The notes: a model not told the origin generated them from the letters alone. A stretch of DNA of 64,000 bases from Candidatus Poribacteria bacterium (GCA_964291315.2 OZ219753.1:1952001-2016000); one strand, 5' to 3'; shown: positions 16,058-62,763, counted from the stretch's first letter. A program made the numbers and translations.

Positions 16058-16876
16058 CTAAACAACGGGGCTTTCATACCTAACATTTGATAGATCGGCA
16101 ACGCTGATCGCACCATCACCGAACACCCTCGTAAAAGTGTGTCCATGGTGCGACTTCGTTTCACCATGCATATAGCAGACGCTGAACGCCCGCCGTGGTA
16201 TGTCTGTATCGTTCGTCCCAGAACTATGGAGCATCCAATTGTGGAGCAAAACCACTTCCCCAGCCTGCAACTCCATCGGCTCCGGTGTCGCCTTCGCAAC
16301 GATGTCGTCAATCTGTTCCTGTGTCAGGAAACCCGAACCGTTTGAAGGATTAATAAGCCTTTTGTGTGATCTCGGAATGATGCGTACACAACCGTTCTCA
16401 ATCGTTGCGGGATCCAGAGCGGTGTAGACGGTAATCCGGGGGTCGCGATCGAGATCCCGCCATCTATCTTGATGCCATGTCAGCTGTGTTCCTTCATGTG
16501 CCGGTTTATTCATAAACATCGCTCGGAAACAAGCGACAGGCGTCACGGGGCCGTAGATCTCTGCACAGACCTCTTGAAAAATCGGTTTCTGCAAATACCC
16601 TAAAAAAATCGGATCCAGTTCCAGGTTCTGAATTTTCCGATACAGCAACGTCGGCCCCTTGTGTCCTTTGGACTGCGGCCCCGGTGAATTTTTCCCAGGC
16701 TCTCGGTCGAGCTGCATCATGATCTGCTCATAATCGAGCGGCGCCTTGCCGAGCATGATGTCGTCCATCCGCTGCTGAAGCTGGGCAAGTTCATCCTCGG
16801 TCGCAACCTGCCCGATACGGACATATCCATTTTCCCAAAAATGTTCCCACTGTTCGTCTGATATATTCTGCTCCAT
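16058..16876 (-). CDS. Phytanoyl-CoA dioxygenase (PhyH) family Fe(II)/2OG dioxygenase
   Basis: FWENGY, WHQD, ALDPATIENGC..IPRSH, LHSS..N..R motifs; start set at ATG 16876 after GGGAGG. Confidence 0.92.
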   Translation of the reverse strand: MEQNISDEQWEHFWENGYVRIGQVATEDELAQLQQRMDDIMLGKAPLDYEQIMMQLDREPGKNSPGPQSKGHKGPTLLYRKIQNLELDPIFLGYLQKPIFQEVCAEIYGPVTPVACFRAMFMNKPAHEGTQLTWHQDRWRDLDRDPRITVYTALDPATIENGCVRIIPRSHKRLINPSNGSGFLTQEQIDDIVAKATPEPMELQAGEVVLLHNWMLHSSGTNDTDIPRRAFSVCYMHGETKSHHGHTFTRVFGDGAISVADLSNVRYESPVV

Positions 16877-17000
16877 GCTGAGCCTCCCCATCATCTCATG
16901 GTTGTGACCTTGAATTATAACACACATTTCAATAAGAAAAAAAGCAAATTCTGATCGCGCCACGCGCTCGGTTCGGACTCCCCTTACGAGCAGCTCGCCT

Positions 17001-17108
17001 AGACTGTGCGATAGCGCTTGCAGCATAACCTGTCAGTCTGTGCCATAGCACTTGTAGCATAGACTGTTAGTCTGTGCATATGCGATAGCGCTTGCAGCAT
17101 AAACTCTC
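17001..17108. repeat. Three tandem ~34-bp intergenic repeats
   Basis: AGACTGTGCGATAGCGCTTGCAGCATAACCTGTC / AGTCTGTGCCATAGCACTTGTAGCATAGACTGTT / third copy with a 6-bp insertion. Confidence 0.8.
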
Positions 17109-19764: not shown

Positions 19765-20538
19765 ATGCTGACGCGCAAGCAGAAGATACACTTTTATGAA
19801 AACGGCTATATCTCTATACCAGGGGTCGTGCCACGCTTGATGGTAGATGCAGCACGACAGTCAATCAATCATTCCATCGGGGCAGTAGGAATGCACCAAG
19901 GCGACTTAGAACGGTTCCGCGCACAATCCTACTGCAATGAAATTCGTGAGGCACCCGAGATCGTCGGTCTCTTCAACAGAACACCGGTCCACCAAATCGC
20001 TGAATCGTTGATGGGGGCAGGAAACGTCCAATCCCCCAAATCCGCTCAGATAGCACTCCGATTCCCCGCTCCATTACAAACAGACCCAAAAGAACCAGGC
20101 GGACATCTCGACGGACTCGGAAGCGGCACAAACGGCATGGCAAAAGGAATCTACCGACGCGGGTTTACCGCACTCGCCGTCGTGTATCTCGCAGACGTCC
20201 CAGAACCGTATAGCGGGAACTTCACCGTCTGGCCAAGATCGCACAGATTTTTCGCCGAATACTTCAAAAAGGAAGGACATGAGATATTAGAAAACGGGAT
20301 GCCGAGAACCAAGCTGCCCGAGGGACCGAAGCAAATCACCGGTAAAGCCGGAGATGTCGTCCTGACGCATCACCAGATCGTCCACTCAGCGGCACCAAAT
20401 GCAGCAGCAGATATCCGCTACGCTGTGATTTTCCGCCTGCGCCACATCGACTGTGAACAAAACGGCTATGACGCTTACACCGATATATGGCGAGAGTGGC
20501 CAGGAATCCAAGAAGTAATTGCCGGAAGCAACGCTTAA
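19765..20538 (+). CDS. PhyH family Fe(II)/2OG dioxygenase
   Basis: FYENGY, GHLDG, VYLAD..GNFTVWPRSH and GDVVL..VHSA motifs; GGAGG RBS. Confidence 0.88.
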   Translation: MLTRKQKIHFYENGYISIPGVVPRLMVDAARQSINHSIGAVGMHQGDLERFRAQSYCNEIREAPEIVGLFNRTPVHQIAESLMGAGNVQSPKSAQIALRFPAPLQTDPKEPGGHLDGLGSGTNGMAKGIYRRGFTALAVVYLADVPEPYSGNFTVWPRSHRFFAEYFKKEGHEILENGMPRTKLPEGPKQITGKAGDVVLTHHQIVHSAAPNAAADIRYAVIFRLRHIDCEQNGYDAYTDIWREWPGIQEVIAGSNA

Positions 20539-22043: not shown

Positions 22044-22841
22044 CTACTTCTGATCTCTTCGTAAAAAGTCAGTCGGTATACGAGACATCGGGTAATTCGC
22101 AGCCTCGTCCCTAGTCGCAACAGCTTCCGGTATCCCCTGATCCCAATAGTCCGGGACAGTGTTAGGCCGACTATGCCATGCCAAGATTAAGGTGCGCCGA
22201 ACATCCGTCCGATTTTGATGAGCAGCGTGTAAAATCCGAGCATCCGCCATTACCAACGAACCCGCTTTCGCCAAAACATCTACCTGATCCGGATGATCAC
22301 TGAACATAACTGGATGGTCAGCATCAATGAACCGCGCACCCTGTTCATGTGCAGGTACTAATATGTCGTGCAAATCGATGCGCTTGCGATGCGTCCCCGG
22401 AATAACTTTTAAACAACCATTTTCCGGCGATGTATCAGTGAGATAATAATTAAGAAAAATCGTCTGAGGCCACGGCGCACAACTGAGCGGATCATTCCAG
22501 CGCATCCAATCTTGATGCCAATAGAGAGGAGGGCCCCCAGGCTCCTTCGTGAGAATAATGATCCCGCCAGAGGACACAAAATCTCCGAAACCGAGCTGTT
22601 CAAGAGCATCACGAGACGGACGCCATTCCAGCAACCTTTGAATATACCGATTGTCTTCACCGCGAACGTTGACATGCTGCCCTTGATAGATAACGTCCTC
22701 CGGCGCCACATGTCCAGCGATGAGCCGTTCTGACTCGTCCCGTAGCTCTTGTAAAAACGCTTCTGTCAAAATACCGTCAACAACGCAGAACCCCTCTTCA
22801 ATCATCTGTTCTCGTTTTTGTAATGCGACTCCTGGGATCAT
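22044..22841 (-). CDS. PhyH family Fe(II)/2OG dioxygenase
   Basis: WHQD, YLTDTSPENGCLKVIPGTH and ILHAAH.N....R motifs. Confidence 0.9.
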   Translation of the reverse strand: MIPGVALQKREQMIEEGFCVVDGILTEAFLQELRDESERLIAGHVAPEDVIYQGQHVNVRGEDNRYIQRLLEWRPSRDALEQLGFGDFVSSGGIIILTKEPGGPPLYWHQDWMRWNDPLSCAPWPQTIFLNYYLTDTSPENGCLKVIPGTHRKRIDLHDILVPAHEQGARFIDADHPVMFSDHPDQVDVLAKAGSLVMADARILHAAHQNRTDVRRTLILAWHSRPNTVPDYWDQGIPEAVATRDEAANYPMSRIPTDFLRRDQK

Positions 22842-23002
22842 CGCTTGCTCCTTTAGGTATCAAAAAAACAGTTCTGAAGTTAATTGCTGTTCAATGTAAG
22901 TCTATGTTATTCTATACGAAGGTGCAGGAGAAAACAAGATTTTTTTAGTGTGTTCAATCGGTTTCCGCTTTATGAAGTAGGGCTTTGGGAAATCAATGAG
23001 TC

Positions 23003-23032
23003 TTGACTTACGTTAATGTCTTTTGTTATACT
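23003..23032 (+). promoter_or_regulatory. Sigma70-like promoter upstream of the propeller gene and the MTase-HNH array
   Basis: TTGACT-18 nt-TATACT with a TG extension. Confidence 0.55.
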
Positions 23033-23057
23033 TCCACAAATAGCTGAAAGGAGAAAT

Positions 23058-23951
23058 ATGGAACGCACACTGTTAATTCACTCCGAAATGCCTGAACTTG
23101 ATAAGGAACACGGCTTCTCAAATATCAACGGACCCTCCTTGGTCCGGGTGCCCGAATGGGTAGAAAACCCGCTGGGGCGATACTATCTCTATTTCGCACA
23201 CCACCGGGGTGCTTATATCCGGCTGGCTTACGCCGACGCAATCGAAGGCCCTTACACCGTCTATCGCCCCGGGGCACTACACAGAGACGCTACTGTTTTC
23301 CGCGGATGTGACCACATCGCCTCGCCAGACGTACACATAGACGCACAGAATCAACGCTTTTTCATGTACTTTCACGGAAACCCACGGAGCGGACAAGTAA
23401 CCAGTTGGGCAATCTCTACCGACGGCGTGAATTACACCGCCTCAAACACAATGGATAGGCGAAACAGCTCTTACTTCCGGGTCTTTTGGTGGAAAGGACA
23501 CCCGTACGCAACCTATCACGGGTGGATAGGTCGCGCAGAAACACCTGAATGGACAGCACCTTTTATACAGCGAGATACCCCCCTCTTTCCGCGCAAATCT
23601 CCAGAAGATAATACCGGTTTCCCACGCCATACAGCGAATCTTTTAAAAGGCAATATTTTAACTGTCTATTACTCGCTCTACGGAGACAGCCCTGAACGGA
23701 TCAAGAAAAGCACCGTGCAGTTGACAACTGATTGGAAAGACTGGCACCCGTCTAAGCCGATAGAGGTTATCGCCCCAAAATACGATTTCGAAGGAAGCAA
23801 CCTGCCGATTAAGCCCTCAACAGGAGGGTTAGATCGAGAACCGGTGCATGAACTCCGGGATCCAGCCATCTATTGTGAGAATGGAAAAACGTGGATGCTC
23901 TATTCTGTTGCCGGGGAACAAGGGATTGCGGTCACGCAGCTGACTGATTAG
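23058..23951 (+). CDS. Glycoside hydrolase-like beta-propeller protein (GH43/GH32-like fold)
   Basis: NINGPSL, YYLYFAHH.G.YIRLAYAD, HIASPDV, ELRDPAIY and YSVAGEQGI motifs; AAGGAG RBS before ATG 23058. Confidence 0.65.
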   Translation: MERTLLIHSEMPELDKEHGFSNINGPSLVRVPEWVENPLGRYYLYFAHHRGAYIRLAYADAIEGPYTVYRPGALHRDATVFRGCDHIASPDVHIDAQNQRFFMYFHGNPRSGQVTSWAISTDGVNYTASNTMDRRNSSYFRVFWWKGHPYATYHGWIGRAETPEWTAPFIQRDTPLFPRKSPEDNTGFPRHTANLLKGNILTVYYSLYGDSPERIKKSTVQLTTDWKDWHPSKPIEVIAPKYDFEGSNLPIKPSTGGLDREPVHELRDPAIYCENGKTWMLYSVAGEQGIAVTQLTD

Positions 23952-23994
23952 CCAAACTGAACCCAAATCCCCCGTACATAAAAAGGAGAACACC

Positions 23995-25206
23995 ATGAAC
24001 GTCAAACCGAAAACCATCTTCACCGGCGATAACCTACAGATCATGCGCGGCATAAATAGTGAATCCGTTGACCTTATCTATCTTGACCCGCCTTTCAACA
24101 GCAATGCCAACTACGCTGCCCCCATCGGCTCACAAGCCGCAGGGGCGGAGTTCAAGGACACCTGGACGCTCAAAGATGTAGACATCACTTGGCTCGACCT
24201 CATTGAGACAAAGCATCCCGCTCTCAACCGTGTTATCCACGCTGCAATGGTAGACAGCGATAAGGCATACCTCATCTACATGGCAGTCCGGTTACTGGAA
24301 ATGGAACGCGTCCTCCGCAAAACAGGCTCTATCTATCTACACTGTGACCCTACAATGTCGCATTATCTGAAACTGGTGATGGACGCTATTTTCGGAAGAA
24401 AGAACTTCCGTAATGAGTGTGTCTGGTGCTATAAAGAAAACGAAACAGCAACCAAATGGTTTCCCCCAAAACATGATGCTATACTATTTTATACGAAAAA
24501 CAGAGATAGTGAATACACCTTCAACATTGTCCGTTCAGGTATAACTGAATCACAAAAAAAGAGATACAATATTATAGACGAGAACGGTGACAGATGGGCA
24601 AATATGAAGGGTAAGATGAGAAAACTAAATCCGAAAGGTGCAAAAGTTCGGGACTGGTGGGAAATACCGATAGCACAATCGCCTGAAAAGACAGGATACC
24701 CGACCCAGAAACCGCTCAAGTTGTTAGAACGCATCATCAAAGCATCTTCAAATGAAGCTGATGTTGTCTTCGACCCCTTCTGTGGCTGTGCGACAACCTG
24801 TGTAGCAGCAGATAGGCTGCAGCGCAACTGGATAGGTATTGACATCAGCCCGAAAGCCGCAGAGCTAGTCGTCAGGCGCATAAAGAACGAGCAAGGCCTG
24901 TTCCAAAAGATTATTCAACGAACAGATATTCCTAAACGCACAGATTTAGGTAACATACCGCGATACAATAGCCCTCAAAACAAAACAGAGCTATATGGCA
25001 AACAAGAAGGATACTGCAGCGCATGCGAAGAACACTTCAAAATGCGACATCTTGAAGTTGACCACATCATCGCTAAATCCGTGGGAGGCACCGATCACAT
25101 CTCTAACCTCCAACTCCTTTGCAGCAACTGCAATCGCATAAAAGGCAACCGAAGCCACGAAGACCTTCTCATCAAACTCAAAAGCGAAAGGGCTAAGAGA
25201 AAGTAG
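23995..25206 (+). CDS. Beta-class amino-DNA methyltransferase fused to C-terminal HNH endonuclease, copy 1
   Basis: IYLDPPFNS (motif IV), TRD, YPTQKP, DPFCGCATT (motif I), GIDIS; then CxxC..EVDHII..GG...NLQLLCxxCN..KG (zinc-HNH). Confidence 0.92.
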   Translation: MNVKPKTIFTGDNLQIMRGINSESVDLIYLDPPFNSNANYAAPIGSQAAGAEFKDTWTLKDVDITWLDLIETKHPALNRVIHAAMVDSDKAYLIYMAVRLLEMERVLRKTGSIYLHCDPTMSHYLKLVMDAIFGRKNFRNECVWCYKENETATKWFPPKHDAILFYTKNRDSEYTFNIVRSGITESQKKRYNIIDENGDRWANMKGKMRKLNPKGAKVRDWWEIPIAQSPEKTGYPTQKPLKLLERIIKASSNEADVVFDPFCGCATTCVAADRLQRNWIGIDISPKAAELVVRRIKNEQGLFQKIIQRTDIPKRTDLGNIPRYNSPQNKTELYGKQEGYCSACEEHFKMRHLEVDHIIAKSVGGTDHISNLQLLCSNCNRIKGNRSHEDLLIKLKSERAKRK

Positions 25207-25214
25207 AGAACACT

Positions 25215-26417
25215 ATGAACGTCAAACCGAAAACCATCTTCACCGGCGATAACCTACAGATCATGCGCGGCATAAATAGTGAATCCGTTGACCTTATCTA
25301 TCTTGACCCGCCTTTCAACAGCAATGCCAACTACGCTGCCCCCATCGGCTCACAAGCCGCAGGGGCAGAGTTCAAGGACACTTGGACGCTCAACGATGTA
25401 GACATCACTTGGCTCGACCTCATTGAGACAAAGCATCCCGCTCTCAACCGTGTTATCCACGCTGCAATGGTAGACAGCGATAAGGCATACCTCATCTACA
25501 TGGCAGTCCGGTTACTGGAAATGGAACGCGTCCTCCGCAAAACAGGCTCTATCTATCTACACTGCGACCCTACAATGTCGCATTATCTGAAACTAGTGAT
25601 GGACGCTATTTTCGGAAGAAAGAACTTCCGTAATGAGATTGTGTGGTGCTATAAGTCAGGCGGTGCAACATCAAAATACTTCGCTAAAAAACATGAAATT
25701 ATTTTGTTTTATAGTAAAAATAATGCTTACAAGTTCAACCCGATCAAAGAAAAAAGTTATCAAGGTATTGGATACAATACAGGAAATAAGAACGTGACTC
25801 TGTATGAAGATGAACATGTAAATACTCTGGGACCACATACATTGGTAAATCTCAAAGACTGGTGGGAAATAAGAATGTTAGCCACATCATCTAAGGAACG
25901 AACAGGTTACCCGACTCAAAAACCACTAAAATTACTTGATCGGATCATCAAAGCATCTTCAAATGAAGGGGATGTTGTCTTCGACCCCTTCTGTGGCTGT
26001 GCGACAACCTGCGTCGCAGCAGATAGGCTGCAGCGCAACTGGGTAGGCATTGACATCAGCCCGAAAGCCGCAGAGCTAGTCGTCAGACGCATAAAGAACG
26101 AGCAAGGCCTGTTCCAGAAGATTATTCAACGAACAGATATTCCCAAACGCACAGATTTAGGTAAGATCCCACGATACAACAGCCCCCAAAACAAGACAGA
26201 GCTATACGGTAAACAAGAAGGATACTGCGGGGGATGTAGAGAGCACTTCCAGATGCGACATCTTGAAGTTGACCACATCATCGCTAAATCCGTGGGAGGC
26301 ACCGATCACATCTCTAACCTCCAACTCCTTTGCAGCAACTGCAATCGCATAAAAGGCAACCGAAGCCACGAAGACCTTCTCATCAAACTCAAAAGCGAAA
26401 GGGCTAAGAAAAAGTAG
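25215..26417 (+). CDS. Beta-class DNA methyltransferase-HNH fusion, copy 2 (different TRD)
   Basis: Same motifs as copy 1 with near-identical flanks and a highly divergent central segment from codon 142. Confidence 0.92.
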   Translation: MNVKPKTIFTGDNLQIMRGINSESVDLIYLDPPFNSNANYAAPIGSQAAGAEFKDTWTLNDVDITWLDLIETKHPALNRVIHAAMVDSDKAYLIYMAVRLLEMERVLRKTGSIYLHCDPTMSHYLKLVMDAIFGRKNFRNEIVWCYKSGGATSKYFAKKHEIILFYSKNNAYKFNPIKEKSYQGIGYNTGNKNVTLYEDEHVNTLGPHTLVNLKDWWEIRMLATSSKERTGYPTQKPLKLLDRIIKASSNEGDVVFDPFCGCATTCVAADRLQRNWVGIDISPKAAELVVRRIKNEQGLFQKIIQRTDIPKRTDLGKIPRYNSPQNKTELYGKQEGYCGGCREHFQMRHLEVDHIIAKSVGGTDHISNLQLLCSNCNRIKGNRSHEDLLIKLKSERAKKK

Positions 26418-26425
26418 AGAACACC

Positions 26426-27619
26426 ATGAACGTCAAACCGAAAACCATCTTCACCGGCGATAACCTACAGATCATGCGCGGCATGAACAGTGAATCCGTT
26501 GACCTTATCTATCTTGACCCGCCTTTCAACAGCAATGCCAACTACGCTGCCCCCATCGGCTCACAAGCCGCAGGGGCAGAGTTCAAGGATACCTGGACGC
26601 TCAACGATGTAGACATCACTTGGCTCGACCTCATTGAGACAAAGCATCCCGCTCTCAACCGTGTTATCCACGCTGCAATGGTAGACAGCGATAAGGCATA
26701 CCTCATCTACATGGCAGTCCGGTTACTAGAAATGGAACGCGTCCTCAGCAAGACAGGCTCTATCTATCTACACTGTGATCCCACAATGTCGCATTACCTC
26801 AAGCTTACAATGGACGCTATCTTTGGTAGGAAGAACTTTCGCAATGAGATTGTGTGGTCATATAAAACAGGTGGCGCGAGCAAAAAAAAGTTCTCAGAAA
26901 AACACGATATAATCCTATCCTACAATAAATCTAAAAGATTTACATTCAACCCGCAAAAAGAAAAATCATATACAAAGAGTAAATCAAGACAACCAGGTAT
27001 TGTCAACTACGGTGGAGGCACATCCGAATTCTTTAAGGATAAACAAGGTGTTTTCAACTATGTAAATATGCGTGATGTCTGGGAAATAAGTTATGTAGGA
27101 TCAACATCACCTGAGAGAACAGGCTATCCGACACAGAAACCCCTTGCACTCTTAGAACGCATCATCAAAGCATCTTCAAATGAAGGGGATGTTGTCTTCG
27201 ACCCCTTCTGTGGCTGTGCGACAACCTGTGTAGCAGCAGATAGGCTGCAGCGCAACTGGGTAGGCATTGACATCAGCCCGAAAGCCGCAGAGCTAGTCGT
27301 CAGACGCATAAAGAACGAGCAAGGCTTATTCCAGAAGATCATCCATCGGGCAGATATTCTCAAACGCACAGATTTAGGTAATATTCCCCGATACAACCAC
27401 CCTAGAAACAAAACAGAGCTATATGGCAAACAAGAAGGATACTGCAGAGGATGTAAAGAACATTTCAAAATGCGACATCTTGAAGTTGACCACATCATCG
27501 CTAAATCCGTGGGAGGCACCGACCATATCTCTAACCTCCAGCTCCTTTGCAGCAACTGCAATCGCATAAAAGGCAACCGAAGCCATGAAGACCTCCTCAC
27601 CAAACTCAAATCAGAATAA
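26426..27619 (+). CDS. Beta-class DNA methyltransferase-HNH fusion, copy 3 (different TRD)
   Basis: Same motifs; a third distinct central segment; lacks the RAK(R/K)K tail. Confidence 0.92.
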   Translation: MNVKPKTIFTGDNLQIMRGMNSESVDLIYLDPPFNSNANYAAPIGSQAAGAEFKDTWTLNDVDITWLDLIETKHPALNRVIHAAMVDSDKAYLIYMAVRLLEMERVLSKTGSIYLHCDPTMSHYLKLTMDAIFGRKNFRNEIVWSYKTGGASKKKFSEKHDIILSYNKSKRFTFNPQKEKSYTKSKSRQPGIVNYGGGTSEFFKDKQGVFNYVNMRDVWEISYVGSTSPERTGYPTQKPLALLERIIKASSNEGDVVFDPFCGCATTCVAADRLQRNWVGIDISPKAAELVVRRIKNEQGLFQKIIHRADILKRTDLGNIPRYNHPRNKTELYGKQEGYCRGCKEHFKMRHLEVDHIIAKSVGGTDHISNLQLLCSNCNRIKGNRSHEDLLTKLKSE

Positions 27620-27703
27620 CCGCTTTTTCGGTGATCCCAGGATCGATACTGTTTTTCGACTCGGCAAGCCGGTAGCTATCTTCCAAAATTGAGCGAACCG
27701 CGT

Positions 27704-28756
27704 TCATCGTTTATCCTCAAATAGATGCAACGGCGCACTCGGGGATTCCGTGAGACGCCGCCGGGCCTCTTTACAATATTCAGCATTAATATCATAACCG
27801 ATATAATGCCTACCCAACCTCTTACAAGCAACTGCGGTTGACCCGGAACCCATGAATGGATCTAGCACTAATGCACCAGAAGGCGTGAGGAGGTGTAGGA
27901 ACTCTTCCACAACTTCAACCGGATAGATTGCCGGATGTTTATTCCCTTTAACGGTGGCCACTGATGTTTCAATTACATCTCGCTTGAGTCTATTACCGTG
28001 CATCCGAATAATTGTAAATCCTTTGTTTCTTAATTGCAGGGTGCGTCCGCCTAACTGTCCACCGAAGGGCTCTGAATGAATACCCCGAATTTTCATCCGA
28101 AAACTATGTGTCTGCCCTTGCATTACTTCTTGGATGACTTCCGTGAGCTCACGCCGCGCAAGCGTTTTTTCTGCTTCAGACAAATCAGATTCTGCGATGA
28201 GTTCAAAATAGCGCTGCCCGACCTTAGTACGCGCTTTTTTACGTGATTGCTTTGGGGCCCGCTCTTTTGCTAAGAAAGCGTTCGGATCATAGAAATAACC
28301 GCCTGATTTGACAAAGTGAAAAAACGGTTCTGTGCTACTAACAAGACGGCGACGAAATTGGCGCGGAGTCGGATTCCGTTTAACCCATGTGACCTCGTTT
28401 ACCAGTTTAACCAGACCTGTCTCCGTCGCAGCAATCGCAAACCGGTACGGGGCAAGCAGTAGGTTACTATCTTCATATTTGTCCCCTATATTGAAAACAA
28501 TACTACCGTCTTTTTTCACAACCCGCACACACTCGTGGAAGAGACGGAGCAATGTATCAATATATGCCTCAACATCACTTTCGTTGCCGATACCGCCACC
28601 ATAATCGCGCTGTTGAAAATACGGCGGAGAAGTAATTACCAATTGAATACTACAACCAGGTAGCTTCTGGATGAGTTCAAGGTTGTCACCGCACAGAATT
28701 TCGTCTATGGGAACGGATTTGTTAACATTTCGGGTATTTTCAGATATGTCCGACAT
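27704..28756 (-). CDS. Orphan beta-class DNA methyltransferase (SPPY type, probably N4-cytosine)
   Basis: ITSPPYF, HPAIYP and LDPFMGSGST motifs; start placed at ATG 28756 (ORF track gives 28810). Confidence 0.9.
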   Translation of the reverse strand: MSDISENTRNVNKSVPIDEILCGDNLELIQKLPGCSIQLVITSPPYFQQRDYGGGIGNESDVEAYIDTLLRLFHECVRVVKKDGSIVFNIGDKYEDSNLLLAPYRFAIAATETGLVKLVNEVTWVKRNPTPRQFRRRLVSSTEPFFHFVKSGGYFYDPNAFLAKERAPKQSRKKARTKVGQRYFELIAESDLSEAEKTLARRELTEVIQEVMQGQTHSFRMKIRGIHSEPFGGQLGGRTLQLRNKGFTIIRMHGNRLKRDVIETSVATVKGNKHPAIYPVEVVEEFLHLLTPSGALVLDPFMGSGSTAVACKRLGRHYIGYDINAEYCKEARRRLTESPSAPLHLFEDKR

Positions 28757-28778
28757 AACATTTAAGATTGTTAATGTT

Positions 28779-28961
28779 TTAAGAACGTTTCTCAATGAGT
28801 CTTCCGACAAAAAAGATGAGAACGCCGAGCGTCAGGAACCCCATTTCAACGCCCATTGCTTTGGCTTCACTATAATCAAACGGATTGACACATCCCAAAT
28901 AGAGAGCTGCCCCTAAGCACACTATCCCCATCAGTTCCAGAGTCTTACCGATATAATACAC
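28779..28961 (-). CDS. Small two-TM membrane protein
   Basis: GTG start after GGAG; YYIGKTLELMGIVCLG...FLTLGVLIFFVGRLIEKRS, 60 aa. Confidence 0.6.
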   Translation of the reverse strand: MYYIGKTLELMGIVCLGAALYLGCVNPFDYSEAKAMGVEMGFLTLGVLIFFVGRLIEKRS

Positions 28962-29049
28962 GACTTCTCCAATGCTATTGGCTACTATTCGATAAGACTG
29001 TAGGGCAAATTTCCGCAACACCCTACAGCCACAAGCCCACAATAACGAA

Positions 29050-29760
29050 CTAGTACAGGCGCTTGATGTGTCCCCACTGCACCAATTTTTGTTGTTTGTT
29101 CGGTTCAAGCCTTGCTGTAAAAATCAAATCGGGAAGAAAATCGTTTTCCTCTGTATAACCCTCTGGACCCCAACCGATCTTATTTTGCAAGTTCCCACCA
29201 TCAACATCGTAGTACGCAATATCAAAGCCGATACTATTCCCTTTTCTTGAAATACTGTCAAGCCGGAAACTCAACTCACAAGTTGTTCCATCATTGCCCC
29301 ATGCCACTCGAGTCAACGGATACTTTAGCGCGTCCATCTCCTTTTGAATCGGAATTTCAAAACGGTAGAGAGCATCCTTTCGCCCAGAGTGGTGTGGATC
29401 TATGTGAAGAATAATGTGATCTTCACGAAGCAGTTTTATTTTACGCGTCTCAAATCGGTCATCCATTACTTTGATAGCAATATAAAGGAAACCGTTCCTC
29501 CAAACCGCTGCAAAGGAACCAATGAAATCAGAGGATTCAGGCAAATACTCTCCCGTCACCAGATCTTTGTCTAATTTTCCAGGTGTCACTTGCTCCCAGA
29601 CCGGATCATCGAGATACCCATCTACGATAGGCGCAACCGAAACAAGATCCGCGTTATATTGAAAATTTTGAAGATTCGCATCCGTGACATGCCCTAATAC
29701 ATAAGGCGCTGTCAGCAGCAGAAAACCGATTAGCGCTAATATATGTCTATTAAGTTTCAT
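29050..29760 (-). CDS. Secreted CBM9-like (sugar-binding/DOMON-like) protein with C-terminal KLxxWGxIK motif
   Basis: Signal peptide; APIVDGYLDDPVW, W...LYIAIKV.DD and IGFDIAYYDVD motifs; GGAGG RBS. Confidence 0.7.
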   Translation of the reverse strand: MKLNRHILALIGFLLLTAPYVLGHVTDANLQNFQYNADLVSVAPIVDGYLDDPVWEQVTPGKLDKDLVTGEYLPESSDFIGSFAAVWRNGFLYIAIKVMDDRFETRKIKLLREDHIILHIDPHHSGRKDALYRFEIPIQKEMDALKYPLTRVAWGNDGTTCELSFRLDSISRKGNSIGFDIAYYDVDGGNLQNKIGWGPEGYTEENDFLPDLIFTARLEPNKQQKLVQWGHIKRLY

Positions 29761-59980: not shown

Positions 59981-61306
59981 ATGAAAATGAAGCATCCGGA
60001 ACAATATTATTTATGGCCGCCCCCGAATGATAATATATCATGTGAGACTGATGTTCTGCCTGCAAATGATGAAGCGTCGTCCTCTACAGATGTGCTACAT
60101 CCGTACCTACATAAAATATTTGAGGTAAGTGATAAGTATCTGAAGAACATCTTCAACGAACGACTCCTGAATGAATTTAGAACGGACTGCTTTCGCTATA
60201 TTCGGGGGGACCGGGATCTCACTATAGAACAGTTTGTCGAAGCCTACTACGGTTTCGTAAAGAGGGAATATCAAAAGCAATACACCGGAGCTCATCCGGA
60301 GCTAAATCAATCCATTTTTTCCGAACCTCACATACCGAAAGCGTTGTGGGGTAACTGCCTTGATTTTTTGCAGCGTATGGACAGTGAAAGTGTTCAGTTG
60401 ATGGTCACTTCTCCTCCATATTACAACGCAAGGGATTATTCCCAATGGGAAACTTTGGATGACTACTTGGATGAAATGTCTTGTATTATCAAGGAATGCT
60501 ATCGAGTTTTGGATAATCATCGCCCCTTCGTTTTTAATGTAGGTGATATATTCGACAACGACAATAGAAATACTAAATCGTCTTGGGGGAAGCGACGAAT
60601 ACCTTTAGGGGCATATTTCACGACAATATTTGAAGAACACGGTTTTCAATTTGTGGACGACTTCATCTGGGACAAGGGAGAAGTTCAGACCCAAAGGCAT
60701 AAAAATGGAAACAAGCCTTACCCGTTATACCAATATCCAATTAATTGTTATGAACATATTTTTGTTTTCTATAAACATCGATTGGATGAAATGCCTTATC
60801 CGTGTCCTATATGCGGTTGTTTGAAAGTCAATGGAAATGCGTATTCTAAAGTGGGCGTCAAATCTTGGGAGTGCAAGAATTTAGAGTGCTTCGAGCGATC
60901 GGCAGGCAATCGTGGTAAACGCTTTTCAGCCCGGACCCAGTTAATGACAGGGTTGCAACAAGCCACAAATCTTGTGAGTGAGGACTTACTACATAGATGG
61001 CGCCGCGACATTGTCAAACTTGCACCAGTGATAAAAATAAACAGTAAGGGAGAGAACACCCTGGGACATACTGCCCCCTTCCCTAGGGAAATTCCTGAAT
61101 ACGCAGTACAAGTATTCACTGGGATGAATGAATCCGTTCTTGATCCCTTTGCAGGTTCATTTACGACAACGATAGAATCATTCCATCAAGGACGAAACAG
61201 CATCGGAATAGAACTAAATCGAACGATGTTTAGAGATGCCGTATTGACGCGATTTTCTAGAACTCTCGGCATAAAACCGAAAGAGGTGGAACGTGCATGG
61301 ATCTGA
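59981..61306 (+). CDS. Beta-class DNA methyltransferase (SPPY, probably N4-cytosine) with Cys-rich insert
   Basis: VTSPPYYN, HTAPFP and LDPFAGS motifs; CPICGC...WECKNLEC insert. Confidence 0.92.
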   Translation: MKMKHPEQYYLWPPPNDNISCETDVLPANDEASSSTDVLHPYLHKIFEVSDKYLKNIFNERLLNEFRTDCFRYIRGDRDLTIEQFVEAYYGFVKREYQKQYTGAHPELNQSIFSEPHIPKALWGNCLDFLQRMDSESVQLMVTSPPYYNARDYSQWETLDDYLDEMSCIIKECYRVLDNHRPFVFNVGDIFDNDNRNTKSSWGKRRIPLGAYFTTIFEEHGFQFVDDFIWDKGEVQTQRHKNGNKPYPLYQYPINCYEHIFVFYKHRLDEMPYPCPICGCLKVNGNAYSKVGVKSWECKNLECFERSAGNRGKRFSARTQLMTGLQQATNLVSEDLLHRWRRDIVKLAPVIKINSKGENTLGHTAPFPREIPEYAVQVFTGMNESVLDPFAGSFTTTIESFHQGRNSIGIELNRTMFRDAVLTRFSRTLGIKPKEVERAWI

Positions 61307-61940
61307 CAGCGACAAACTCGTAACTGGACTTTATGGAGAAATGCGTTTGGCAATGGAACTGCATAAGCGTGGCTGGCAAGTCTATAGGGCCTATATAGAC
61401 GAGAAGTTCGATTTTGTCATTCTGAAAAGTTACTGTGAATGCTGCAAGTCATTCAAAAACGCCTTAACGCGCGAAGAATGTTATAAAGGCCACAAACGTA
61501 AAGCGGTAACGCAGCTTTGTGAGACATGTGAACAAGACAGCTTGAAAATGCTCGTTAGATTTATTCAGGTTAAAACTTCAGAGGGAGTTCCTCCAAAACA
61601 GGCAAATTTGGGAAAAGAACATTCCAAAAAATTTAGTTTCCATCCTAAAATCCGTTATCATTTAGCAGACTCGAGAGTGTTTTACGTGTGGATACAAATC
61701 TGGGACCAAGATACACATGACATCAACTACTACATTTTTAAAACTTCGGATGTCGAGCGTTTTGATGATTTGGACCTAGATACCTATCAAATAACCGACA
61801 ACCAAAAAACTACACTGACGATAAACAAAGCAGGGAAAGTGTTAAATAAGGGTAGGAAATATAATTTTGAGGCGTTTGAAGATTTTCACAACAATTTTGA
61901 TTGTTTGGAAGACGTAATAGATGGTGATTCTTGGAAATGA
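61293..61940 (+). CDS. Putative PD-(D/E)XK restriction endonuclease with zinc-ribbon insert
   Basis: GE..A.EL..RGW.V....D..FD and IQVKTS motifs; CECC...CETC; overlaps the MTase stop by 14 bp. Confidence 0.65.
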   Translation: MHGSDSDKLVTGLYGEMRLAMELHKRGWQVYRAYIDEKFDFVILKSYCECCKSFKNALTREECYKGHKRKAVTQLCETCEQDSLKMLVRFIQVKTSEGVPPKQANLGKEHSKKFSFHPKIRYHLADSRVFYVWIQIWDQDTHDINYYIFKTSDVERFDDLDLDTYQITDNQKTTLTINKAGKVLNKGRKYNFEAFEDFHNNFDCLEDVIDGDSWK

Positions 61941-62115: not shown

Positions 62116-62763
62116 GTGTCAGAAATGTCAAATACGTTTAATCTAAAAACTTTTCAAGAAGTATTCGACTCTTATTTTTGGAAATGGTGGTGCATTTGTT
62201 CTATCCTCTATATTTCCTTGTTCGGCATCTATGCCGTAGCGGCAATCGGGCTACTAACAACCGAAACAGAATTACCTTCGTTCCTCTACCGGTTCATAGC
62301 ACCGTTTGAATATGCTGGCGGAATGGCTGACATTCCAATTGGGGGAAGAGAATTTGGTTTTCTCACGTTTGGTGCTGTTTCTGTCGGTATCTTTGCTATC
62401 GGTGCTGTTTCTGTCGGTATCTTTGCTATCGGTGCTTTTTCTGTTGGTGTCTTTGCTATTGGTGCTTTTTCCATGGGCATCTTTGCGTTTGGTGGCAACG
62501 CTGTCGGTATCATCGCCATCGGATCGGGGACAAGTCTTACCGGCTATTTTGATCGGAAGGCATCAAAAGCGCGAGGAAGATTTGACATCGGTAAGGCTGT
62601 TGGTGTTGTCGCCATAAGTCCTGAAGCTTACGGTGTCTATACATTATCTTATAGTGGTTCGGGTGCCTTCAGTTTCTCGCCATCGTGTCAAGACGTGGTA
62701 GCGGTTTCATTTTTTTCCAGATGGTTGCCAAAATTCAAGAGGGCCTTTCACAGTCCGGGTTAA
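62116..62763 (+). CDS. Membrane protein with Gly/Ala/Ser-rich pentapeptide repeats (GAVSV/GIFAI)
   Basis: N-terminal TM; 30-bp tandem units at 62371-62520, the first two identical. Confidence 0.7.
   Translation: MSEMSNTFNLKTFQEVFDSYFWKWWCICSILYISLFGIYAVAAIGLLTTETELPSFLYRFIAPFEYAGGMADIPIGGREFGFLTFGAVSVGIFAIGAVSVGIFAIGAFSVGVFAIGAFSMGIFAFGGNAVGIIAIGSGTSLTGYFDRKASKARGRFDIGKAVGVVAISPEAYGVYTLSYSGSGAFSFSPSCQDVVAVSFFSRWLPKFKRAFHSPG

Follow-up and report, generated by a model that had tools for sequence, protein, structure and literature searches.

Restriction-modification (R-M) enzymes of Types IIC and IIG (MmeI-like, Eco57I-like) carry a nuclease and a methyltransferase (MTase) in one chain, with both activities sharing a single target recognition domain (TRD), and they acquire new specificities through TRD change. 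Characterised members measure about 900-1000 amino acids (aa); their PD-(D/E)XK nuclease is N-terminal, their MTase belongs to the gamma class and their TRD is C-terminal. In the passages of PMC12707154 that concern Type IIC enzymes, the type is described by the presence of both activities in one polypeptide, and assembly into dimers is given as a possible means of regulating the nuclease. Type III Mod subunits consist of a beta-class MTase with conserved N- and C-terminal parts and a central TRD. According to those sections of Furuta and Kobayashi (2012; PMC3467074) that deal with mod genes, Type III TRDs move between genes by homologous recombination at conserved motif-coding sequences, and the trees of TRD and non-TRD sequences are incongruent. 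Here we describe a tandem array of three genes, each of which fuses a beta-class MTase to an HNH nuclease domain at the C terminus. The array lies in a 64,000-nt stretch of DNA (the window) from a Candidatus Poribacteria bacterium (GCA_964291315.2, OZ219753.1:1952001-2016000).

The array proteins resemble Type IIC/IIG enzymes in that nuclease and MTase share one TRD within a single chain, which is predicted as one compact model (predicted template modelling score, pTM, 0.91), and in that specificity would change with the TRD. However, they measure only ~400 aa, their MTase is of the beta class, the TRD is central and the nuclease is a C-terminal HNH domain, all of which departs from the Type IIG architecture. 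With Type III Mod they share the beta-class MTase, the conserved N and C parts and the central TRD, but there is no adjacent Res, the nuclease is fused, and TRDs are exchanged across many phyla rather than within one species. The solved beta-class MTases M.MboIIA (1g60), M.RsrI (1eg2), CcrM (6pbd) and M.BceJIV (9c3u, 8urk) agree with the array proteins in fold and motif order, and in several of these entries at least two chains with one sequence are present, a likeness to the homodimer predicted here; none of them has an HNH domain, and the best TM-score normalised by the query (TMq) is 0.51. Subgroups of the insertion sequence (IS) IS1595 with passenger genes are catalogued, and this layout occurs among relatives of the array (loci L074/L077/L079, L022 and L027), whereas the window array has neither a transposase nor inverted repeats. 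Finally, the portions of PMC9973331 on DnmA-YeeB-YeeC of Bacillus subtilis describe an N6-methyladenine (m6A) MTase genetically linked to a T5orf172/GIY-YIG-type protein, and the T5orf172-domain and GIY-YIG nuclease protein families are grouped together there. Some relatives of the array similarly join an MTase to T5orf172, but in B. subtilis, as far as those portions go, the genes are separate and include a helicase, whereas here the domains are fused and no helicase is present. The proteins described here would work like a Type IIC/IIG enzyme and evolve like Type III Mod alleles. We consider it moderately probable that each gene encodes a small, self-contained, single-polypeptide R-M-type enzyme, and that the three genes form a TRD-exchanged array of three specificities.

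Structure of the tandem array

The genes and their parts, all on the + strand, are the following (ORF, open reading frame; pLDDT, predicted local distance difference test; AF2, AlphaFold2).

23995..25206, + strand: copy 1 of the MTase-HNH fusion gene, 403 aa (ORF; PF01555 156.6 bits, PF01844 51.8 bits; AF2 model with pLDDT 94.6 and pTM 0.91)
24418..24690, + strand: variable (TRD) segment of copy 1, 273 nt (GC 0.385; nearest TRD found in protein P0010, 63% aa identity)
25015..25152, + strand: HNH core of copy 1, aa 341-386 with CxxC, DH, N and CxxCN (protein alignment and Pfam; residues invariant or nearly so in 117 relatives)
25207..25214, + strand: 8-nt spacer between copies 1 and 2, junction ...TAGAGAACACTATG (DNA alignment)
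25215..26417, + strand: copy 2 of the MTase-HNH fusion gene, 400 aa (ORF; PF01555 162.3 bits, PF01844 52.1 bits)
25638..25901, + strand: variable (TRD) segment of copy 2, 264 nt (GC 0.341; nearest TRD found in protein P0017, 84% aa identity)
26226..26363, + strand: HNH core of copy 2, aa 338-383 (protein alignment and Pfam)
26418..26425, + strand: 8-nt spacer between copies 2 and 3 (DNA alignment)
26426..27619, + strand: copy 3 of the MTase-HNH fusion gene, 397 aa (ORF; PF01555 166.7 bits, PF01844 53.4 bits)
26849..27118, + strand: variable (TRD) segment of copy 3, 270 nt (GC 0.352; nearest TRD found in copy 2, 43%)
27443..27580, + strand: HNH core of copy 3, aa 340-385 (protein alignment and Pfam)

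The three co-oriented, intact ORFs follow one another head to tail, with 8-nt gaps and with gene starts 1220 and 1211 bp apart, just as an earlier note on this DNA had described. That note had also pointed out near-identical codons 1-141 and C-terminal parts, separated by divergent, length-variable and A/T-rich segments beginning at 24418, 25638 and 26849, and had judged the MTase and HNH motifs to be intact in each copy; the alignments bear out all of these points, and Pfam agrees with them as to the motifs. In the protein alignment the constant parts comprise residues 1-141 and 233 to the end and are near-invariant, while the variable block extends from FRNE to TGYPTQKP. At the DNA level, the N-terminal constant part (423 nt) is 98.8% identical between copies 1 and 2 and 94.6% identical between copy 3 and either of them; the corresponding values for the C-terminal constant part (498 nt) are 92.6% (copies 1-2), 90.6% (1-3) and 89.8% (2-3). 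The variable segments of the three copies share 63-68% of their nucleotides and 34-44% of their amino acids. They are poorer in GC than the flanks (0.34-0.385 versus 0.47-0.50), and the same holds for the GC content at third codon positions (GC3; 0.31-0.36 versus 0.50-0.63).

Codon differences between the copies amount to 4-18 synonymous versus 1-4 nonsynonymous in the N part and to 24-29 versus 8-12 in the C part. Since the differences in the flanks are mainly synonymous, all three copies look as if they were maintained by selection. Each of the copies, the first one included, is preceded by the same leader, leader and start codon together reading GAGAACAC(C/T)ATG, which means that the repeat unit brings its own leader. 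The locus does not have the appearance of a shufflon of the Type I hsdS kind, as the copies are direct repeats and no recombinase domain is found among the neighbours. A scan of positions 22800-29100 for promoters and terminators yielded sites no more frequently than shuffled sequence did and is therefore uninformative on operon structure.

TRD exchange on constant flanks

The design of constant flanks with a swapped TRD is a property of the whole family. We assembled 184 proteins (the 120 best matches and 64 locus ORFs scoring >400 bits), 152 of which have both anchor motifs, and assigned TRDs to the same type if they were at least 60% identical over at least 80% of their length. The 152 proteins fall into 62 TRD types, 42 of which are singletons. 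TRDs are <50% identical in 2869 of the 3468 protein pairs whose flanks are at least 85% identical; conversely, 33 of 3711 pairs still have a TRD in common despite flanks that are <70% identical. In an alignment of 32 sequences the N and C parts are nearly invariant, and the middle block takes the form of discrete unrelated types, each present in a subset of the proteins.

The array itself follows this pattern. Copies 2 and 3 have flanks that are 98/93% identical and TRDs that are 43% identical, whereas the TRD of copy 2 is 84% identical to that of P0017 across less similar flanks (84/76%). This combination upholds the picture of exchangeable TRD cassettes that the array had originally suggested. 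The TRD of copy 1 is 63% identical to that of P0010, with flanks of 78/66%. By their flanks, the nearest relatives of each copy are the other two copies (95-97% aa identity), followed by P0004 (87-88%) and by the rest at 85% or below, and yet the TRDs of copies 1 and 2 have their nearest relatives outside the array. P0004 (425 aa, 70% identical) probably represents a further, fourth paralogue from another place in the same genome. The array fits a history in which a gene was duplicated locally and TRDs were replaced through recombination in the flanks, and/or in which gene conversion made the flanks alike; Furuta and Kobayashi (2012) drew the same conclusion for Type III mod genes. Low GC content of the TRD is also widespread: of 40 related loci, 37 have a lower GC content in the TRD than in the flanks and 39 have a lower GC3, at any GC content of the host (0.40-0.69). 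A foreign origin of the cassettes is a possible cause, and so is GC-biased gene conversion of the recombining flanks.

Domain architecture and predicted structure

All copies match PF01555 (N6_N4_Mtase) over residues ~25-292 with 156.6-166.7 bits (cut-off 26.7) and PF01844 (HNH) over residues ~340-386 with 51.8-53.4 bits (cut-off 21.4). DPPF (residues 31-34), the variable block (142-232) and DPFCGCATT (260-268) follow each other in the order motif IV - TRD - motif I, and the motifs are intact in all three copies. The IV-then-I order is the beta-class arrangement and thereby places the TRD in the variable block. Pfam score, motif order and fold all identify the MTase as a member of the beta class, whereas the HNH (beta-beta-alpha-metal) domain is identified by its Pfam score, the D-H and Asn residues and two CxxC zinc pairs. 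The HNH residues C341, C344, D356, H357, N371, C376, C379 and N380 are intact in every copy. Across 117 relatives, down to 42% identity, conservation of DPPF, DPF-G, the four cysteines, D356, H357, N371 and N380 is complete or reaches at least 90%.

The AF2 model of copy 1, based on an alignment of 117 sequences, is confident over the whole chain (pLDDT 94.6, pTM 0.91); an earlier model from a shallow alignment of 32 sequences was discarded (pLDDT 40.9). Foldseek matches of the model include CcrM (6pbd, E 5.8e-18), M.MboIIA (1g60, TM-score normalised by the target, TMt, 0.83-0.85) and 9c3u (TMt 0.80), and further M.BceJIV, M.RsrI and EcoP15I Mod. By sequence, the closest solved relatives are M.MboIIA, M.BceJIV, CcrM, M.RsrI and Type III Mod subunits (E 3.5e-15 to 2e-12 for the solved N6-adenine MTases), and the HNH part is nearest to IscB/Cas9-type HNH models. 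The DPPF motif and the N6-adenine MTases among the structural neighbours suggest m6A chemistry.

A homodimer of copy 1 is predicted with a score of 0.77, as opposed to 0.00 for the best of three controls; contact agreement between the runs is at least 94% and partner pLDDT at least 78. Among proteins solved as one-chain pairs 20 of 30 attained this mark, and among those solved as single chains 1 of 23, although these counts are approximate (own alignment used). To the predicted interface, which is symmetric, the constant part contributes residues 76-89 and 119-135, and the variable block contributes residues 139-179 and 216-221. The prediction supports homodimer binding by copy 1, but because beta-class MTase dimers are already present in the PDB, it may only mirror the likeness to them. 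Combinatorial specificity through heterodimers of the paralogues is speculation.

Exchange of the nuclease domain and other arrays

The TRD is not the only exchangeable part. A T5orf172/MUG113 domain stands in place of HNH, at the same position, in P0226, P0234, P0246, P0258, in copies 1-2 of locus L045 and in L075; the L075 variant adjoins a transposase fragment. L045 (L045:3-4753), found at a contig end of a Spirochaetia metagenome-assembled genome (MAG), consists of three tandem beta-class MTase genes with constant flanks and a variable TRD, the second and third copies being 86% and 78% identical to the first. Copies 1-2 end in T5orf172/MUG113 (GIY-YIG-like), the third copy is truncated, and the contig end may hide more copies. 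A convergent MTase gene lies downstream of this array.

Looser associations are seen in L004, L076 and L079, each with a second family member within 8 kb. P0121 is a 1598-aa ORF with three MTase units after about 650 unassigned residues, and in P0140 the MTase-HNH part is followed by ankyrin repeats. In P0230 an MTase is joined to a phage terminase gpA ATPase domain.

Size and distribution of the family

The fusion is by no means confined to this locus but belongs to a very large, usually single-copy family represented by at least 608 stretches. The protein search returned at least 8000 matches, of which the best 120 all contain PF01555 and PF01844, with lengths of 389-471 aa and identities of 60-100% to copy 1; those few of the 120 that have a name are entered as 'hypothetical protein' or 'DNA methyltransferase' of Candidatus Poribacteria. 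An exhaustive search of 50%-identity cluster representatives gave 3369 clusters at E <=1e-30, and HNH is present in 125 of the 150 best representatives, while T5orf172/MUG113 takes its place in some of the others.

Of 613 candidate stretches located in species-representative genomes, 608 could be confirmed, and the locus counts given here and below refer to the best 80 loci among these at least 608 stretches, compared with up to 8 kb of flank per side where the contig allowed. All 80 loci come from MAGs, and they represent >10 phyla. Their titles include Poribacteria, Chloroflexota/Dehalococcoidia, Acidobacteriota, Alpha- and Gammaproteobacteria, Rhodothermales, Longimicrobiales, Nitrospirales, Dadabacteria, Binatia, Latescibacterota, Spirochaetia, Opitutales and Acidimicrobiia. 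Several of the names (Poribacteria, Poriferihabitaceae, Porisulfidus) denote sponge-associated lineages, and from names alone we infer a sponge habitat. Some genomes have several copies, with four loci in one Rhodobacter MAG and three in one Dehalococcoidia MAG. The gene is split into at least two ORFs in 18 of the 80 loci, for which assembly indels are a possible cause.

In collections of cultured phages and plasmids, records with the MTase part are numerous (666 from phages, 602 from plasmids), whereas the full fusion is rare, with two plasmid records in which 80% or more of the query is covered. For the C-terminal half, coverage of 80% or more is seen in one phage record, there across two annotated features, and seven phage records reach it for the whole protein when counted by coverage alone. 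We did not adopt a typical phage origin. In a cultured organism there is a distant MTase-HNH-type gene (33% identical), on a plasmid of Microbacterium amylolyticum (NZ_CP049254.1, L081:4986-6617), where it is annotated only as 'DNA methyltransferase' and sits between zeta-toxin and Fic/VbhA toxin-antitoxin genes.

The sections of PMC12284385 on domain enrichment report DNA-methylase (PF01555) and HNH (PF01844) domains to be enriched in sponge bacterial metagenomes, and the relevant sections of PMC5735121 report likewise for restriction endonucleases and adenine-specific methylases; a fusion is mentioned in neither set of sections. We found no publication on an MTase-HNH or MTase-T5orf172 fusion family in the full-text literature, a search whose coverage leaves out REBASE and subscription journals, and we provisionally regard the family as undescribed.

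Carriage by IS1595 elements

Neighbouring ORFs of at least 100 aa from the 80 loci were clustered by BLAST. Once antisense shadows of the family gene had been set aside, the sole strongly recurrent neighbour was a protein of ~300-330 aa, present in 26 loci. It is an IS1595-type transposase: the four ORFs tested have PF12762 and PF12760, the L038 member has PF12762 only, and the remaining members were assigned by BLAST clustering alone. The transposase gene is located either upstream of the family gene and in the same orientation, or downstream of it and in convergent orientation, with no more than 500 bp between the two in 23 of the 80 loci; in 26 of them the distance is 8 kb or less. In nine loci its stop codon is within ~4 nt of, or overlaps, the start codon of the family gene.

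Mobility of the family as an IS1595 passenger, which was absent from the earlier note, is directly visible in one Dehalococcoidia MAG. Loci L074, L077 and L079 contain a 100% identical unit of 2511-2515 bp comprising transposase and MTase-HNH genes (L074:6918-9428, with the same coordinates in L077 and L079), with 36-nt inverted repeats (GGGGATTATATAC...) exactly at its borders and with a different 8-bp direct repeat around each unit (CTTAATTT, AATGATTT and AAATGGAA). This is direct sequence evidence that both genes were transposed as one unit, even though the passenger gene is split within its TRD region in these copies. In L022 (L022:6936-9416) an intact 407-aa gene occurs in the order inverted repeat - transposase - MTase-HNH - inverted repeat, and L027 (L027:6908-9677) has the same layout together with an 8-bp repeat, CAACTTTG. 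Given the inverted repeats and 8-bp target duplications at four insertions, the gene travels as an IS passenger. The full set of features, target duplication included, is thus present in L074, L077, L079 and L027, and L022 has the transposase and the inverted repeats.

None of these features is found in the window, where no member of the transposase cluster lies within 8 kb of the array, no inverted repeat pair surrounds it and no GGGGATTATATAC-like end occurs within 9 kb. An IS remnant in the window was considered and rejected, as the three GGGGATTATATAC-like matches are weak and remote from the array, and 1.04 would be expected by chance. As a separate observation, a 627-aa ORF in L038 (L038:9932-11815, - strand), situated 585 bp away from the MTase-HNH gene, unites the Type I specificity-subunit domain Methylase_S (PF01420) and an IS1595 DDE transposase domain; it may be either a real fusion or a read-through of two genes.

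Genomic neighbourhood

Two genes border the array directly.

23016-23951: ORF immediately upstream of the array, 311 aa (no Pfam, NCBIfam or PADLOC match)
27704..28810, - strand (convergent): fourth beta-class MTase, 368 aa, SPPY motif, no nuclease domain (PF01555 162.3 bits only; 50 bits against the family hidden Markov model; membership in the unit uncertain)

No restriction-type or nuclease gene recurs near the family gene in the 80 loci, and none stands beside the window array. Likewise, no res gene (superfamily 2 helicase-nuclease) is found at the array, whose neighbours are the 311-aa ORF, the MTase and a CBM9 protein, and no helicase cluster emerged from the 80 loci. The missing recurrent nuclease neighbour is nevertheless no proof of autonomy.

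Three paralogues of the PhyH (phytanoyl-CoA dioxygenase) family lie up to 7 kb upstream of the array (16058-17026, 19765-20538 and 22044-22841). Farther away, at 59981-61940, the window has an unrelated second beta-class MTase gene (441 aa, PF01555), the end of which is overlapped by 11 nt by a 215-aa ORF without a Pfam match; these two may constitute a separate Type II R-M pair, and another 215-aa ORF is located at 62116-62763. A Phototrophicaceae MAG (L020) offers a defence-island-like setting that contrasts with the window: a GmrSD_N-HNH (Type IV-like) gene lies 3 kb upstream of MTase-HNH and a small helix-turn-helix-HNH gene immediately downstream (L020:3933-5021 and L020:9237-9785).

Possible function and alternative explanations

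If the genes encode self-contained R-M-type enzymes, the beta-class N6-adenine MTase would read a short DNA sequence via its central TRD and methylate it, and the C-terminal zinc-stabilised HNH domain (DH...N...N) would cut or nick DNA near unmethylated sites. The enzyme would probably act as a symmetric dimer, bringing two nuclease sites together, and dimerisation is a plausible switch for the nuclease, of the kind that the Type IIC passages of PMC12707154 propose. With one scaffold and three TRDs, the array would mark and police three different sequences. It may have been born in this genome by tandem duplication, its TRDs being replaced by homologous recombination across the conserved flanks and the flanks being kept alike by gene conversion, with a TRD pool common to a large, horizontally mobile family that elsewhere is often an IS1595 passenger. 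The domain architecture, the intact motifs, the mosaic of TRDs and flanks, the size and spread of the family, IS carriage in relatives and the exchange of the nuclease domain are seen in the sequences themselves; m6A chemistry, sequence-specific cleavage, methylation control and a defence or addiction role are what we infer from them. In favour of a polypeptide that both methylates and cuts are the conserved active sites, the replacement of HNH by T5orf172 and the lack of a partner gene that recurs; the turnover of TRDs, the spread over phyla, the presence of several copies and the frequent decay of the gene point the same way.

Several observations weigh against this interpretation. PADLOC and NCBIfam returned generic MTase and HNH-bearing (IscB/Cas9) models only, PADLOC Type III MTase models among those matching window proteins, and no named defence system. 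The neighbours of the array are housekeeping genes (PhyH, GNAT, SDR, CBM9, FtsH, FolP) and do not form a defence island. Matches with the two-domain architecture are absent from the PDB (best TMq 0.51) and from BFVD (0.52); as the matches cover about half of the model at most, the MTase-HNH combination has no solved or viral-model analogue there. We found no measured activity for any family member. If one enzyme is to methylate as well as cut the same sites, some control step is required, and no such step is apparent in the sequence. The location of 23 of 80 relatives in or beside IS1595 would equally fit a role serving the mobile element. We also know of no precedent, since the characterised single-chain R-M enzymes known to us pair a PD-(D/E)XK nuclease with a gamma-class MTase. 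Finally, besides the window, only one of the 80 related loci (L045) has a tight array.

The two main proposals of the earlier note fare differently. A single-polypeptide methylate-or-cleave enzyme stands as the best available reading of the conserved catalytic residues, the T5orf172 replacement and the lack of a recurrent separate nuclease gene. The multiplex system retains the three distinct TRDs on one scaffold, but with tight arrays so rare, a dedicated system of this sort is only partly supported. The array looks like the outcome of duplication and recombination in a mobile, usually single-copy family and not like a designed multiplex system. A more far-reaching possibility, which we put forward tentatively and regard as rather doubtful, is that the family represents a miniature (~400 aa), hitherto undescribed class of single-chain R-M enzymes with a beta-class m6A MTase and with an exchangeable central TRD and C-terminal nuclease (HNH or T5orf172), spread over >10 phyla of one habitat, partly as IS1595 cargo, with a community-wide TRD pool. 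Arrays would then be working specificity libraries, and, given that the predicted dimer interface belongs in part to the common scaffold, paralogues might perhaps pair on composite sites.

Among the alternatives, the one that survives best assigns the gene mainly to the service of a mobile element, either as an addiction/retention module (post-segregational killing by the nuclease after loss of methylation) or as a homing-type nuclease that would favour the spread or gene conversion of its own locus, the window array being a stranded, IS-less, duplicated remnant. The proximity of the transposase (23 of 80 loci within 500 bp, 26 within 8 kb), the thrice-copied identical 2511-bp unit with its 36-nt inverted repeats and different 8-bp repeats, the layouts of L022 and L027, the transposase fragment beside the L075 variant and the cross-phylum spread with 80-90% identical flanks all speak for it. 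However, no transposase is found within 8 kb in 54 of the 80 loci or in the window, hypervariable TRDs would be unexpected for a factor acting on fixed IS ends, and the split passenger of L074/L077/L079 indicates that the element moved without an intact passenger. We consider this explanation unlikely. As an addiction role of an R-M system does not preclude a role in defence, it overlaps in mechanism with the self-contained enzyme that we prefer.

The C-terminal segment of CcrM binds DNA. Since CcrM (6pbd), the best structural match, is a beta-class MTase with an extra C-terminal segment, the fusions could be orphan MTases in which the HNH fold serves as a non-cleaving DNA-binding or clamping appendage, and the array would then merely provide three methylation specificities. 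That no restriction phenotype is known for the family and that relatives are annotated as 'DNA methyltransferase' or 'hypothetical protein' would agree with such a role. But D-H, both Asn and the four zinc cysteines are at least 90% conserved in the 117 relatives, the position is sometimes taken by a different nuclease-type fold (T5orf172) and not by another DNA binder, and gene disruption (18 of 80 loci) together with TRD turnover is typical of costly conflict genes. Orphan MTases thus seem decidedly improbable.

Less credible still, to the point of being very improbable, is a multi-component system made up of the three fusions and the convergent fourth MTase, in the manner of Type IIS systems with several MTases, where the latter would protect and the fusions cleave. 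A convergent beta-class MTase does follow both the window array (27704-28810) and the L045 array; yet the two are only generically similar (31% over 65 aa), no such neighbour recurs at other loci, and each fusion has intact MTase motifs of its own. As for an assembly artefact in which strain alleles of one gene were concatenated, near-identical flanks are indeed the type of repeat that confuses assemblers, but the exact, in-register junctions with their 8-nt spacer and the same leader before each ATG, the 1-10% flank differences between copies, mostly synonymous, the three proteins recorded on a contig of 3,261,609 bases, the independent three-gene array of a related subfamily in L045 and the three MTase units within the single 1598-aa ORF of P0121 leave it next to no credibility.

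Implications

If these proteins both cut and methylate DNA, they would be the smallest modular R-M enzymes known to us. Their naturally swapping TRD (62 types in 152 proteins) would then amount to a kit for engineering sequence-specific methylases, nickases and cutters. The family would also explain at least part of the enrichment of PF01555 and PF01844 that the domain sections of PMC12284385 report for sponge bacterial metagenomes, and it would clearly exemplify the transport of an R-M-type passenger from one phylum to another by an insertion sequence. Within this wider setting the window array may be viewed as a snapshot of one genome multiplying its specificities by duplication and cassette exchange; instructive as it is, the array remains a minor part of a family that is far larger and of greater interest.

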